Source: Escherichia phage Gostya9
Reading direction: 5' to 3' (one strand)
Sequence record: NC_047979.1
DNA length: 64,000 nucleotides
Shown in pieces: positions 22,633 through 49,139 of this stretch. The notes beneath the pieces were generated by a model that did no database searches, was not told the origin of the DNA, and saw only the letters and a list, made by a program, of their open reading frames with translations. Numbering within the stretch: the first letter of the stretch is position 1; each line of letters starts with the position of its first letter. A program made the position numbers and the translations under genes.

Positions 22633-22958
22633 TTCAGATCCTTTTCGTTAATTAGAATATCAGTAAACAGTGGAGTAAATCCTAGAATCATAGGAGGTCC
22701 AAAGGTTTGCATAGCTACCCACAGTTGCATAGTGATCATCCCATCTTTAATCTCTGGATCTTTATACTCTTCGATACGTTTTTTGGCAAAGGCAACTACA
22801 TCTGGAGTGCTACCATTCTTTATAACATGATCATGCCAAAATTGTGTATTCTCACTACGCAGGAATGTTAAGACGTCCTTAGTTGCTGGAATCTGCACTG
22901 TGCTATTGATGTTTAACTTTTTCACGTTCTTCTCTCTGTTATTCTTTAGGAAACCCAT
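22629..22958 (-). CDS. hypothetical protein
   Basis: 109-aa ORF. Confidence 0.45.
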   Translation of the reverse strand: MGFLKNNREKNVKKLNINSTVQIPATKDVLTFLRSENTQFWHDHVIKNGSTPDVVAFAKKRIEEYKDPEIKDGMITMQLWVAMQTFGPPMILGFTPLFTDILINEKDLK

Positions 22959-23448
22959 TAAACTCTTCGATGACTGCTAGAGTTCCGTGCAACTCTAATC
23001 GTAATCCATTAGCTTTGTATACTGCAGATTCTAAGTCTTCATAATCGAATAGACCACCGTAAACTCTAATACCTTCGTTATTATTAGTATAAACTCTCCA
23101 TTTCTGGAGATGAGTATCCCAAGATACTCCTAAGTATCCCGAATTGCTAGTAGCAGTCCTATTTCTATTATTTTCCTGCCTAGAACTATCTCTGAGATTA
23201 CTCCACCTATTATCATCCCTAATTCTATTGATATGATCAACAAATTCAGGAATATACCCTTCCATAAACAAGAAGGCTAATCTATGCGCTAGTTCCCTGT
23301 GTCCATCTCCAACTCTAATCTGAATATATCCATAGTTATTAGGCTTATTATTTATAGGTTTTATTCTACCACTTTTTAGACGTCTAGAAAATAATCCTGT
23401 TTCTGGATCATATATCAGCAGTTCTTTTAACCTTTCTTGTGTAATCAT
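22939..23448 (-). CDS. HNH homing endonuclease (paralog 2 of 3)
   Basis: 169 aa; MITQERLKEL..HRLAF..VDH.NR..NRW.NLRD..ENN.NRT, same architecture as 13250..13786. Confidence 0.75.
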   Translation of the reverse strand: MITQERLKELLIYDPETGLFSRRLKSGRIKPINNKPNNYGYIQIRVGDGHRELAHRLAFLFMEGYIPEFVDHINRIRDDNRWSNLRDSSRQENNRNRTATSNSGYLGVSWDTHLQKWRVYTNNNEGIRVYGGLFDYEDLESAVYKANGLRLELHGTLAVIEEFNGFPKE

Positions 23449-24091: not shown

Positions 24092-24439
24092 TTAATCATA
24101 TGCCCACCATAACCCACGCTTACGCATGTCATGATCACGATTATAGTCGTAATTTTCTGGATCTTTCATTACGCGGTGGAGTTCTTGACGATTCCCTTGA
24201 CGAACCATTTTATTAGAGTGCCACTTAACATTCTTACTAACAGAATTCCAGCTAAAACCATCCTTTTTCTCATTACGAATGGTTGCTTCTTCCATTTCCT
24301 GTTCTACCTCATCCCAGGATTTAGCATAAGTAACACGAATCCAATAGCCACTTGCTCTGAGGAAAGTATATCCCTGGGTGTAATTAGCTTTAGACTTCCA
24401 CCACTGATCACCAGATTGTTTACGATAAGTACGGCTCAT
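24092..24439 (-). CDS. hypothetical protein
   Basis: 115-aa ORF. Confidence 0.45.
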   Translation of the reverse strand: MSRTYRKQSGDQWWKSKANYTQGYTFLRASGYWIRVTYAKSWDEVEQEMEEATIRNEKKDGFSWNSVSKNVKWHSNKMVRQGNRQELHRVMKDPENYDYNRDHDMRKRGLWWAYD

Positions 24440-24560: not shown

Positions 24561-24875
24561 TCACAGATCGGGGTACTTATCTTCTAAACAGTCCGAGCTA
24601 ACATATTCTTCGAATCCTACAAAGCCATCAAATTCATCATTTGAAATATCCGTAATCAGTGCTTCCATTTTCCTAATTTCCGAGGTTTTCATGCCTGCTT
24701 TACTATTCTTAAAGTATTTGCGAGGATTCCCACACATCCAACAAGAACAGATACAAGGAGTAGTAGTGATAAGACCTAACCGTTTAGGGCTTTCTTCATG
24801 AGGGAAGACTGTCCAATACTTTTTGCGGTTGTTCTTTACACGTTGCCGGTGATGACGTCTTAATGCTCGATCCAC
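24561..24875 (-). CDS. hypothetical protein
   Basis: 104-aa ORF. Confidence 0.45.
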   Translation of the reverse strand: MDRALRRHHRQRVKNNRKKYWTVFPHEESPKRLGLITTTPCICSCWMCGNPRKYFKNSKAGMKTSEIRKMEALITDISNDEFDGFVGFEEYVSSDCLEDKYPDL

Positions 24876-24956
24876 ACATTTCTCCTAAAACTTGGGAGAT
24901 AAATGGAGTTTGCTCGACTACCTTACGTAGTTCGTAGAAACCGTATCCAAACCCCA

Positions 24957-25325
24957 TTACATCGCCTGAGTAAATGTACGACTAATAACGTCGTTCTGCT
25001 GTTCACGCGTCAGTGCGTTAAAACGTACAGCGTACCCTGAAACACGGATAGTTAATTGAGGGTATTTTTCAGGATGTTTCTGTGCATCCAAAAGCTGATC
25101 ACGACTTAACACATTGACATTTAGGTGCTGACCACCTTCAATTTGAGGGGCGACCTCCACCTTGACTTCACGAAAGGATTCAGAGTCAAAGTGAGGTGTG
25201 ATACCTTCAAGATCTTCAACTAGAACTTTTTGTTTAAGTTCACCATCTTTAGAGTACAGTTGAATAATCTGATTATCATGAACAATATTAATTACTCCAG
25301 ACTTAAGATTTTGATATGCTTTCAT
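24957..25325 (-). CDS. autonomous glycyl-radical cofactor (GrcA/YfiD-like)
   Basis: C-terminal [44 protein letters not shown] closely parallels E. coli GrcA from memory; start set at Met after AGGAGA RBS (about 122 aa). Confidence 0.7.
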
Positions 25326-25510
25326 TAGCTCTCCTGTTTGGTAGTTAGTAGGGGGTTTTGAACCACTGTAGTCGCTCCGTATGAAGGAGGTGCATAACCA
25401 CTCTGCCAACTAACTAGTATGTTTTACTAGACTAAGTAAGTATTCTTTATACTCTTTAGACCAGCTAGCTTTTTAAACTTTCCTGGACGCATAGTCTTAA
25501 TTCCTAGATT

Positions 25511-38493: not shown

Positions 38494-39267
38494 TTATACA
38501 AACTCATACGCCGGGAACTTAGGTGAACGAACTCTATTACCTATAGTCGCTGTGGAACACCCCAATGCTCTAGCTGCTGCACTCATACTAACGTATTCCA
38601 CACCATCCACACGTACTGCCTTAAAGTGAGTAGGAATGGGTGTCTTTCCCTCTCTAATACTTTCTTGGTACTGCTTAGAAGCCTGAGACATCTTGCTCAG
38701 AGCCTCTTCAGTGTGCTTCTTCCCATAAAAGGAGTTATTCTCACCTGTTCGATCCCTACAACTATTACAGTACTCCCCATTAGTGTTATTAAGGGCTAGT
38801 AGGGAACCACAATCAATACATGTTTTTGAGCGAGTAGATACTCCTCCCTTCCAGTTATAGTTTAGCTCGCCTGGTCTACTCCACCGGGCTTTTCTTTCTT
38901 CTTTAGATAAGGACGCTATATGCTTTCTAACACTCTCACTAATTCTCTTAATAATCTCCTCTCTTCGAGGATTATTTGTGAGATTATCCCCGCCACCGTA
39001 GCTACCTATGTTGAACTCTGCTCCCAGCTCCTTAGCCCACTCTTCTTCTAGTAAGAACTGCTGATCTACTTCTTCAGTAGTATCTAAGATGTCAAATACA
39101 AAGTCTTGCTTTCCGGTTTTATCATAAGCTCTCTGTAGAAAAGCGTTATGGTGGTTCCCCTTACTTAGTGAGTAAAAATGTTTACGCTTTCTAGCCTCAA
39201 TATCCTTAGTCGATCCAACGTACTGTCTTCCCGTAGATAGCTGAGTTATACTATAGATGTAAATCAT
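38494..39267 (-). CDS. GIY-YIG homing endonuclease with NUMOD-like repeats and C-terminal HTH
   Basis: 257 aa; N-terminal IYIYSITQLSTGRQYVGST..R..H (GIY-YIG), repeated N..GG..NSFYGKKHTEE modules, C-terminal HTH; start overlaps thyA stop. Confidence 0.7.
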   Translation of the reverse strand: MIYIYSITQLSTGRQYVGSTKDIEARKRKHFYSLSKGNHHNAFLQRAYDKTGKQDFVFDILDTTEEVDQQFLLEEEWAKELGAEFNIGSYGGGDNLTNNPRREEIIKRISESVRKHIASLSKEERKARWSRPGELNYNWKGGVSTRSKTCIDCGSLLALNNTNGEYCNSCRDRTGENNSFYGKKHTEEALSKMSQASKQYQESIREGKTPIPTHFKAVRVDGVEYVSMSAAARALGCSTATIGNRVRSPKFPAYEFV

Positions 39268-45709: not shown

Positions 45710-47536
45710 ATGACAGAGAATGAATTAATTGAGAATTGCAAAGGTCTGCTCACTCTAACTGCGGATAAAGACTTACAACATAATAATGCTAATAAGCCTA
45801 GTGAGATGTTCCATACTCAAAGAGACTTATTGGCCGGAGAAATCAACAAGTATTTAGTATCGCAGGAATTACCCAAACATCTATTAGACGCCCATAATCT
45901 AGGTAAGATACACATTCATGATATGGATTACAGAGCGCAGGGGTACACTAACTGTTGCTTAGTAGACCTTGGTGGCATGCTGAAGAATGGTACTAAAATT
46001 GGTAATGCAAATATTGAAACTCCTAAATCCATAACTACTGCATGTGCAATCACTGCCCAGATTATTGCACAAGTATCTGGTGCTCAGTATGGTGGCACCT
46101 CTATTGATCGTATCGACGAGGTTCTAGCCCCGTATGTCAGAAAGTCTTACAATAAACATCTGGGTCGTGGTCTACGTTGGCTCAAGGATGAAAGAAAAGC
46201 TGCCGTGTACGCTACTGAGCTTACTGAAAAAGAGTGTTATGATGCATTCCAAGCTCTAGAGTATGAAACTAATTCATTATTTAACTCTAACGGGCAGACT
46301 CCTTTTGTTACGCTTGGCTTTGGGCTAGGACAGGGGTGGGAGGAAAGGATGATTCAGAAAGCCATCCTCCAAAATCGTATTAAAGGTTTAGGTGCTGCTG
46401 AGTCAACCCCTATCTTCCCTAAACTAGTATTCTCAGTTAAAGAAGGATTAAATAAAAATCCAGGGGATCCTAACTACGATATAAAACAGCTAGCACTTGA
46501 GTGTTCTGCTACTCGTATGTATCCAGACTATTTAAGTTACGAGAAAGTTGTAGCTGTTACTGGTGATTTTAAAGCCCCTATGGGTTGTCGTAGTTTTTTA
46601 TCTGCTATCCCCTCTGGAGAAATTGCAGGGCGTAATAATTTAGGTGTAGTGTCTATCAATCTACCTATGGTTGCTGCTGAGGCAGATGGAGTTTTTGAAG
46701 ATTTCTGGGATATTCTAGACAAATATGTGGATGAGGCTTTTGAAGCGCATGACTTCTTCTTAAACAGACTGAAGAAAGTTAAGGCTAAACAAGCCCCTAT
46801 TCTTTATATGCACGGCGGTTTTGGTGTACGTTTAGATGGGGAAGAATATGTATGGCCTATTTTTGAAGGTAGATCTTCTGTATCTCTTGGGTACATTGGG
46901 GTCTATGAGATGTGTCAAATAATGTTTAGTTTACCACAGACTCATAGGGACTGTATTGAGTTTACAGAGGAAGTTCTCACTCACCTAAAAAATCGTTGCG
47001 AAGTTAAAGCTAACGAGACTAATCTTGGGTTTAGCTTGTATGCAACTCCTAGTGAGTCTCTATGTAATCGCTTTAATAAACTACTGGAACGTAGATTCCC
47101 AGAGTATTCTTGGCTAACAGATAAAGGCTATCTCACTAATAGTCACCATTTGGACGTAAGAGAGAAGGTAGCTCCGGATACTAAATTTGAGTATGAAGCT
47201 CATTTCACCAAAATAGCTAATGGTGGTAATATATCGTTTGTGGAACTACCACAAATGAAAAAGTTCCATAAAGCTCTTGAATACGTAGTAGATAAGGGAT
47301 TAGAATGTAGCCATTATATTGGTGTTAATATACCAATTGATGAGTGCTTCAACTGTGGGTATATGGGTGAATCTGTTGCCTCTGAACGTGGGTTTGTATG
47401 TCCGAGTTGTGGATCTGAAGAAATAGAGGTTACACGTAGGGTTTGTGGGTACCTGGGATCCCCGGGCAGTAGGCCTTTCAATTCTGGGAAACAAAAAGAA
47501 GTGCTTGGTAGAGTAAAACACTTAAATCTTAAGTAA
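45710..47536 (+). CDS. nrdD: anaerobic ribonucleoside-triphosphate reductase (class III)
   Basis: 608 aa; C-terminal zinc ribbon CxxC..CxxC and glycyl-radical motif RVCGY. Confidence 0.85.
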   Translation: MTENELIENCKGLLTLTADKDLQHNNANKPSEMFHTQRDLLAGEINKYLVSQELPKHLLDAHNLGKIHIHDMDYRAQGYTNCCLVDLGGMLKNGTKIGNANIETPKSITTACAITAQIIAQVSGAQYGGTSIDRIDEVLAPYVRKSYNKHLGRGLRWLKDERKAAVYATELTEKECYDAFQALEYETNSLFNSNGQTPFVTLGFGLGQGWEERMIQKAILQNRIKGLGAAESTPIFPKLVFSVKEGLNKNPGDPNYDIKQLALECSATRMYPDYLSYEKVVAVTGDFKAPMGCRSFLSAIPSGEIAGRNNLGVVSINLPMVAAEADGVFEDFWDILDKYVDEAFEAHDFFLNRLKKVKAKQAPILYMHGGFGVRLDGEEYVWPIFEGRSSVSLGYIGVYEMCQIMFSLPQTHRDCIEFTEEVLTHLKNRCEVKANETNLGFSLYATPSESLCNRFNKLLERRFPEYSWLTDKGYLTNSHHLDVREKVAPDTKFEYEAHFTKIANGGNISFVELPQMKKFHKALEYVVDKGLECSHYIGVNIPIDECFNCGYMGESVASERGFVCPSCGSEEIEVTRRVCGYLGSPGSRPFNSGKQKEVLGRVKHLNLK

Positions 47537-48311: not shown

Positions 48312-49139
48312 GTGCGTAGATTAATTATTATTAGCGGTGCAGGTTTGAGTGTTGAAAGTGGTGTACGAGCCTTCCGTACTGATACTGCTAGTGGTAAAGC
48401 ATTGTGGGATGATTATGATCTAGAAGAAGTATGTAATATTCATGCCTTTCGTGGTAATTTTTATCATAAAACTCATATGTTTTACAACAAGCGTCGTGAA
48501 GAGTTAGAAACTGTTGAACCCAATCTTGCACACTTGCGTATTGGTGAATGGCATAAGAAATACCAGGGTCAAGTAGTAAACTTGACTACCAACGTTGATG
48601 ACCTTATTGAGCGTGCTGGCGTTCCACATAGTGACATTCTGCACATTCATGGGTATTTAAAAGAGGTTGTTGTAGCTGATAGCTACAATAGTAGCAATAA
48701 ACGAGTTATTGATGTTGGGTATAGCTCTATTGACCCAGAGGATTATAAATGGGTTAAACCTAATGTAGTCTTCTTTGGTGAGCATGCTCCAGCGTACGCA
48801 GAAATGTACAATATTTTTGATGGTATTACCAGTCAAGATATGATTATTGTGGTTGGTTGCTCTAACCAAGTAATTAACTTCTACTGGGAATTATTCCCTG
48901 TTCTTAACCGTACTGCTGCGAAACTTATGGTGGTTAACTACTACGATATTACCCTCGCGGCAGAACCAGGCTATCAAGGTATGACTCGTAGTGAGATGTA
49001 CCAACTGGAAGAACGGGGTATTCCTTACTGGGGTAAAGGTGCGGTAGATGCTTTCAGTGACCCTGATTTTATTGCTCGTGTGGAAGCCCATTTAGAGGGT
49101 AGACCTTATATGCCGGGGAACAAATATGTCCATAGTTAA
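48312..49139 (+). CDS. Sir2-family NAD-dependent deacetylase / ADP-ribosyltransferase-like protein
   Basis: 275 aa; N-terminal GAGLSVESGVRAFR matches the sirtuin GAGIS.ESGIP.FR NAD-binding motif. Confidence 0.65.
   Translation: MRRLIIISGAGLSVESGVRAFRTDTASGKALWDDYDLEEVCNIHAFRGNFYHKTHMFYNKRREELETVEPNLAHLRIGEWHKKYQGQVVNLTTNVDDLIERAGVPHSDILHIHGYLKEVVVADSYNSSNKRVIDVGYSSIDPEDYKWVKPNVVFFGEHAPAYAEMYNIFDGITSQDMIIVVGCSNQVINFYWELFPVLNRTAAKLMVVNYYDITLAAEPGYQGMTRSEMYQLEERGIPYWGKGAVDAFSDPDFIARVEAHLEGRPYMPGNKYVHS

Follow-up and report, generated by a model that had tools for sequence, protein, structure and literature searches.

A GrcA/YfiD-like glycyl-radical protein encoded at the edge of the tRNA cluster of a T5-like phage, a probable spare part for host pyruvate formate-lyase

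Among glycyl-radical spare parts, the phage T4 counterpart of the protein described here is the second textbook example, the first being YfiD (GrcA) of E. coli. Both YfiD and T4 Y06I, the product of gene vs.6, are activated by the activase of pyruvate formate-lyase (PFL) and restore PFL that has been cleaved by O2 at G734 (Wagner et al. 2001, BBRC 285:456, as cited in PMC8683613 and PMC13450708), and in the two citing articles they are presented as the only two validated spare parts. The N-terminus of YfiD is reported to be disordered, and its N-terminal half matters for efficient installation of the radical (PMC8683613/PMC13450708). Here we compare with these two proteins a small protein encoded in a 64,000-nucleotide stretch of Escherichia phage Gostya9 (NC_047979.1), referred to below as the window. 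Around its gene, a 20-kb stretch shares 97% identity with Escherichia phage DT57C (Tequintavirus, Demerecviridae), whose orthologue appears in RefSeq as "putative autonomous glycyl radical cofactor GrcA." A literature search returned nothing specific on the GrcA protein of the T5 group, and the genome paper on phage BF23 (PMC10644984) does not mention grcA.

The grcA-like gene lies on the minus strand at 24957..25325 and encodes 122 aa plus a stop codon, as determined by reading the open reading frame and from the Pfam, NCBIfam, and PDB matches of its product; the ATG is at 25325-25323 and the TAA is at 24959-24957. These were the coordinates given in the initial annotation, and they proved to be right. 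A longer, TTG-started frame reaching to 25409 was considered and rejected, because the extension would cross a tRNA-Met(CAT) gene at 25339..25415 (minus strand; ARAGORN and the DT57C annotation) and because all the GrcA homologues aligned start at MKAYQ or a near equivalent. A Shine-Dalgarno sequence, AGGAG, was read directly at 25331..25335 (minus strand), 5 nt upstream of the ATG. The tRNA-Met gene immediately upstream ends only 3 nt before this Shine-Dalgarno sequence, and from this spacing we infer that grcA, which borders the early tRNA cluster, is probably cotranscribed with it. A consensus scan of the minus strand revealed no promoter-like site between the tRNA-Met gene and the grcA coding sequence and no promoter or terminator belonging to grcA itself. 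Processing of the tRNA-Met 3' end would give a grcA message with nearly no 5' leader.

On the downstream side, the ATG of a 53-aa frame (24796..24957, minus strand; a hypothetical protein in the DT57C annotation) overlaps the grcA stop codon in the sequence TAATG, and the two frames are probably translationally coupled. Also downstream of grcA on the minus strand are two small, basic frames, a T5.055-like one of 104 aa (24561-24875) with the motif CICSCWMCGNPRK and no Pfam match, and one of 115 aa (24092-24439) matching DUF7295 (E 1.3e-55). A 169-aa frame at 22939-23448 (minus strand) is without a counterpart at that position in the DT57C annotation and may be a mobile insertion.

The product of grcA consists of a phage-type N-terminal region (residues 1-62) and a PFL-type glycyl-radical domain (residues 63-122). 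The only Pfam domain in the 122-aa protein, which has no catalytic barrel, was Gly_radical (PF01228), matched over residues 62-103 with 66.4 bits (E 3.7e-18; cut-off, 22.2 bits). The radical motif RVSGYAV is intact at residues 94-100, and the predicted radical glycine is G97. The initial annotation had likened the last 60 residues to E. coli GrcA and had suggested a search against GrcA sequences and profiles; the search was carried out and bore out the likeness. Forty-eight of the 60 residues (80%) are identical to those of E. coli GrcA, and 48 of 60 are identical to residues 700-759 of E. coli PflB, which is the same identity as that between E. coli GrcA and PflB themselves. The residues shared with PflB 700-759, the piece that a spare part would replace, include the loop of the radical glycine and the helix at the C-terminus. 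The NCBIfam GrcA model TIGR04365 matched with an E value of 1.9e-35, sequence matches in the PDB were YfiD (6owr; E 1.5e-30) and PflB (E 4e-27), and the match to phrog_1209 spanned the whole protein (E 4.8e-48). When 27 GrcAs of phages and bacteria were aligned, 41 positions proved invariant, all of them within residues 63-119.

Other database records of the protein are labeled pyruvate formate-lyase, 2-ketobutyrate formate-lyase, acetyltransferase-related, or hypothetical. An identity as a pyruvate or 2-ketobutyrate formate-lyase was tried and rejected, as TIGR01255 gave 86.1 bits against a cut-off of 994 and was matched at model positions 683-744 only. Since the barrel of the ~760-aa enzyme and its catalytic Cys-Cys pair (Cys418/Cys419 in PflB) are both absent, the protein is not an enzyme on its own, and the two formate-lyase labels are misnomers.

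An AlphaFold model of the protein, built on the 27-sequence GrcA alignment, had a mean pLDDT of 70.8, with block means mostly between 73 and 87 over residues 71-120 and below 50 at residues 60-71 and 120-122. The C-terminal domain was modeled as a helix, a beta-hairpin containing the glycine loop, and a second helix. The top Foldseek matches were the NMR structure of YfiD (6owr; E 8.6e-6, TM 0.75 normalized to the target) and PFL (2pfl/1cm5), and the predicted fold of the radical domain is that of the YfiD NMR structure and of PFL. The N-terminal half (residues 1-60) was predicted to be a region of five beta-strands with a pLDDT of 60-80, and no structural relative of this half of the model was found in the PDB. 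This beta-rich, low-confidence prediction contrasts with the disordered N-terminus of YfiD; coming from an alignment of 27 sequences, it is a hint only that the N-terminal half of the phage protein is possibly folded.

How closely the window protein follows the two validated spare parts differs between its halves. Like T4 Y06I/Vs.6, it is small and standalone (122 versus 120 aa), carries a PFL-type radical domain, and belongs to the same PHROG family; the two phages are also alike in being virulent and in carrying nrdD. The radical domain of Vs.6 from the T4-type phage RB18 is identical to that of E. coli GrcA at all 60 positions, compared with 48 of 60 for the T5-type domain, and this complete identity points to a recent capture of the RB18 domain from an enterobacterial host. 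The signatures QLxDAQ and DVISRTFT are instead common to T5-type and jumbo-phage GrcAs; at these places bacterial GrcAs have TLxDAV/I and DVIA/TRTFT. With E. coli GrcA the window protein shares the RVSGYAV loop, the predicted fold, and a similar length; the N-terminal halves of these two are only about 33% identical, with gaps, and those of the T5 type, the T4 type, and E. coli are mutually 31-38% identical. The two proteins further differ in that E. coli GrcA is expressed from the host grcA locus and the window protein probably from an early tRNA-cluster transcript.

The divergence of the N-terminal half also accounts for the TIGR04365 score of 121.9 bits, which is below the trusted cut-off of 170 bits for this equivalog model. 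E. coli GrcA scored 234, and RB18 Vs.6, the orthologue of the validated T4 protein, scored 153.3 and so also fell short, which argues that the cut-off is tuned to bacterial sequences; it does not exclude functional phage members. RB18 Vs.6 and the window protein are 53% identical over their full length and both begin with MKAYQ, and because of this homology repair of PFL is the most likely function of the T5-type protein too. By analogy with the characterized proteins, and with a probability that we put at roughly 0.8, the window protein would be a GrcA/YfiD-type spare part, most likely one that repairs O2-damaged PFL of the host. The earlier proposal of a GrcA/YfiD-like standalone spare part is thereby upheld by sequence, by predicted fold, and by the identity to Vs.6. 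The divergent N-terminal half may count against it, given the part that this half of YfiD plays in radical installation.

We then considered the distribution of the gene and the selection acting on it. A tblastn search detected grcA homologues in 1581 phage records, of which 434 reach an identity of at least 80%; among the matches listed, those at or above this level were in T5-like genomes of ~105-125 kb, and the remaining ones were mostly in T4-like phages. Compared with the proteins of phage BF23 and of a 121,750-bp T5-like contig from IMG/VR, the window protein shows 99.2% and 98% identity, respectively. Such a gene could be a fragment of host pflB or grcA that was picked up by chance and is useless to the phage, and in a nucleotide comparison the 3' half of grcA does find its best E. 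coli match in the 3' end of pflB (74-75% identity). However, each of the 30 T5-like copies compared, which comprise 28 distinct nucleotide sequences, has kept the frame intact, and among the 28 distinct sequences dS was 0.37 and dN was 0.026, a dN/dS of 0.07; for the N-terminal half this ratio was 0.11 and for the radical domain 0.018. T5-like grcA is under strong purifying selection. The gene also has its own Shine-Dalgarno sequence and start, is found in T5, BF23, DT57C, and hundreds of related genomes, and encodes a full-length homologue of other phage GrcAs. A chance acquisition without function is hardly credible, and the selection analysis effectively refutes it.

The same conservation bears on the idea that the protein is a regulator or decoy, which would sequester PflA (or NrdG) of the host, or attach to intact PflB or TdcE, and in this way redirect host fermentation. 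The phage-type N-terminal half is conserved (dN/dS 0.11), possibly folded, and different from that of bacterial GrcA, and could carry an extra function, and 2-ketobutyrate formate-lyase is among the labels in the databases. The residues of the radical loop and of the docking helix are, on the other hand, all conserved as in functional spare parts, the closest characterized homologue acts as a true cofactor, and no evidence obtained here points to inhibition, so that we regard this role as unlikely.

If the protein repairs host PFL, as we favor, its use would follow from the state of the infected cell. The pre-early genes of T5 and BF23 bring transcription and translation of the host to a halt and destroy its DNA (PMC10644984), and consequently the cell would be unable to replace PflB or to induce its own grcA. 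Synthesis of the phage protein would fall early in infection, with the tRNA-cluster transcript as its probable source, and, to judge from the characterized homologues, host PflA, a radical SAM enzyme, would take a hydrogen from G97, which lies in the RVSGYAV loop. Where trace O2 had cut host PflB at G734, the glycine that bears its radical, the activated domain of 60 residues would be expected, as in the homologues, to dock where the damaged enzyme had lost its C-terminal piece, and the repaired PflB would restore the conversion of pyruvate to acetyl-CoA and formate. Since the host would supply neither new PflB nor new GrcA, a patch of 122 aa would be a cheap fix, and it could sustain the fermentative supply of ATP and acetyl-CoA. 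The sustained formate might also serve as a reductant for the phage NrdD, provided that this enzyme follows the rule for class III.

The presence of a class III (anaerobic) ribonucleotide reductase with an RVCGY site, also claimed in the initial annotation, was confirmed. The nrdD gene, at 45710..47536 on the plus strand, encodes 608 aa (Pfam NRDD, E 3.2e-157; T4 NrdD in the PDB, 1h78, E 2.2e-177), with a Cys4 cluster (CFNC...CPSC) just before the glycyl-radical site TRRVCGYLG and, as in T4 NrdD, without an ATP-cone. The description of grcA as lying alongside nrdD holds for the genome as a whole only, as the two genes are 20.4 kb apart and on opposite strands. Two further frames were recorded in this part of the window. 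One, at 38494-39267 (minus strand) beside the thymidylate synthase gene, encodes a GIY-YIG/I-TevI-like homing endonuclease with Pfam GIY-YIG, NUMOD3, and I-TevI DNA-binding domains. The other, at 48312-49139 (plus strand), encodes a full-length Sir2-family protein of 275 aa that matches Pfam SIR2 (E 6.8e-26) over positions 1-178 of the 180 in the profile; the corresponding gene of DT57C is 273 nt long and annotated as a defective Sir2-like protein.

Host PFL and the phage NrdD had both been named as enzymes that the GrcA-like protein could rescue, and of these host PFL, with 80% identity to PflB 700-759, stands. A spare part for the phage's own NrdD would replace the C-terminal radical piece of the O2-cleaved enzyme. 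NrdD is likewise cleaved by O2 at its radical glycine, as indicated by an E. coli scission-site paper listed in PMC4390871, reviews leave spare parts for enzymes other than PFL as an open possibility (PMC8683613, PMC13450708), and in several phage lineages grcA stands between or beside nrdD and nrdG. Yet the window protein and the window NrdD gave a BLASTP E value of 7.1 and have only RVxGY in common, and the former is without a single cysteine, whereas the radical region of the latter contains CFNC...CPSC. The identity to PflB and the dN/dS of 0.018 in the radical domain are as expected with PflB as the partner, and T4 Y06I complements PFL according to PMC8683613/PMC13450708. Taken with the evidence on both sides, a role as a spare part for NrdD is highly improbable.

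Both radical proteins need an activase, and no radical-SAM activase of the PflA or NrdG kind was found in the window or in the DT57C genome (loci L001 and L005-L007). The search comprised a six-frame scan of the window for CxxxCxxC in frames of at least 60 aa, tblastn of E. coli PflA and NrdG and of three phage NrdGs against the window and the whole DT57C genome, and inspection of the DT57C annotation. The sole motif match beside grcA, CICSCWMC in the 104-aa T5.055-like frame, was rejected, this frame having no Pfam match and being too small for a radical-SAM enzyme. In the absence of a phage activase, GrcA and NrdD must use the PflA and NrdG of the host. T4-type phages differ in this respect from the T5-type genome, as they carry nrdG.

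In other phages, the genes concerned are arranged differently. The GrcAs of RaK2-like phages, of the Aeromonas phages 65, Aeh1, and phiAS5, and of BUCT695 are homologous to the window protein over most of its length (50-71% identity), and in these phages grcA adjoins nrdD and/or nrdG on one strand, in contrast to the window, which lacks nrdG and has its nrdD far off on the opposite strand. In BUCT695 (an Aeromonas phage of the Grimontviridae), nrdD is followed by grcA after a 9-nt gap. A 345,809-bp jumbo-phage contig (L038), which we take to be RaK2-like, has the order nrdD, grcA, one open reading frame, nrdG, and two jumbo-phage contigs of 354-357 kb (L039 and L040) have nrdD, one or two frames, grcA, one or two frames, nrdG. 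The T4-like Aeromonas phages 65, phiAS5, and Aeh1 have nrdD, nrdG, vs.6 (grcA), and the nrdC thioredoxin gene. In every one of these arrangements, the genes are on the same strand. The positions at which grcA lies within or next to nrdD-nrdG are 3898-6375 in L009, 8081-11124 in L038, about 7000-12000 in L039 and L040, 7679-10351 in L085, and 7244-10246 in L089. Phages of the T4 type proper and those of the T5 type have these genes dispersed. No paper discussing the order of grcA and nrdD in phages was found in the literature.

Formate is the reductant of most of the class III ribonucleotide reductases studied and is a product of PFL (PMC4390871). Together with the position of grcA beside nrdD in other phages, this makes a metabolic coupling, in which the upkeep of PFL would keep NrdD supplied with reductant, the simplest reading of the gene order. 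The formate link would come from synteny in those other phages, grcA being unlinked to nrdD in the window. Going by its likeness to T4 NrdD, we assume the window NrdD to be of the formate-using type, and it is a likely consumer of PFL-derived formate.

In a wider reading, phage GrcAs would form a lineage of their own with a conserved, possibly folded N-terminal domain and would be functionally tied to the class III ribonucleotide reductase module instead of simply copying the host's repair part. Such phage GrcAs might be activated by NrdG-type activases or might deliver or buffer radicals for NrdD. We consider this very unlikely. If it were true, RaK2-like and Aeromonas phages would show the intact nrdD-grcA-nrdG unit, with the T5-type gene as a dispersed member, and the protein would provide the first case of a spare part or accessory protein that serves a glycyl-radical enzyme different from PFL.

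The gene has been annotated before, and it is a relative of a T4 protein characterized biochemically in 2001. Only two points are mildly new, namely, that T5-type phages have no activase and that the order nrdD-(nrdG)-grcA recurs in other phages. With repair of host PFL as the preferred function, grcA would be a phage auxiliary gene that mends a host enzyme rather than replacing it, and T5-type phages appear to leave the activation of two oxygen-sensitive radical proteins wholly to enzymes of the host. The recurrence of the nrdD-(nrdG)-grcA order in unrelated phages amounts to a testable link between PFL repair, formate, and the anaerobic synthesis of dNTPs, and such a link would bear on how these phages infect cells where oxygen is low, as in the gut.
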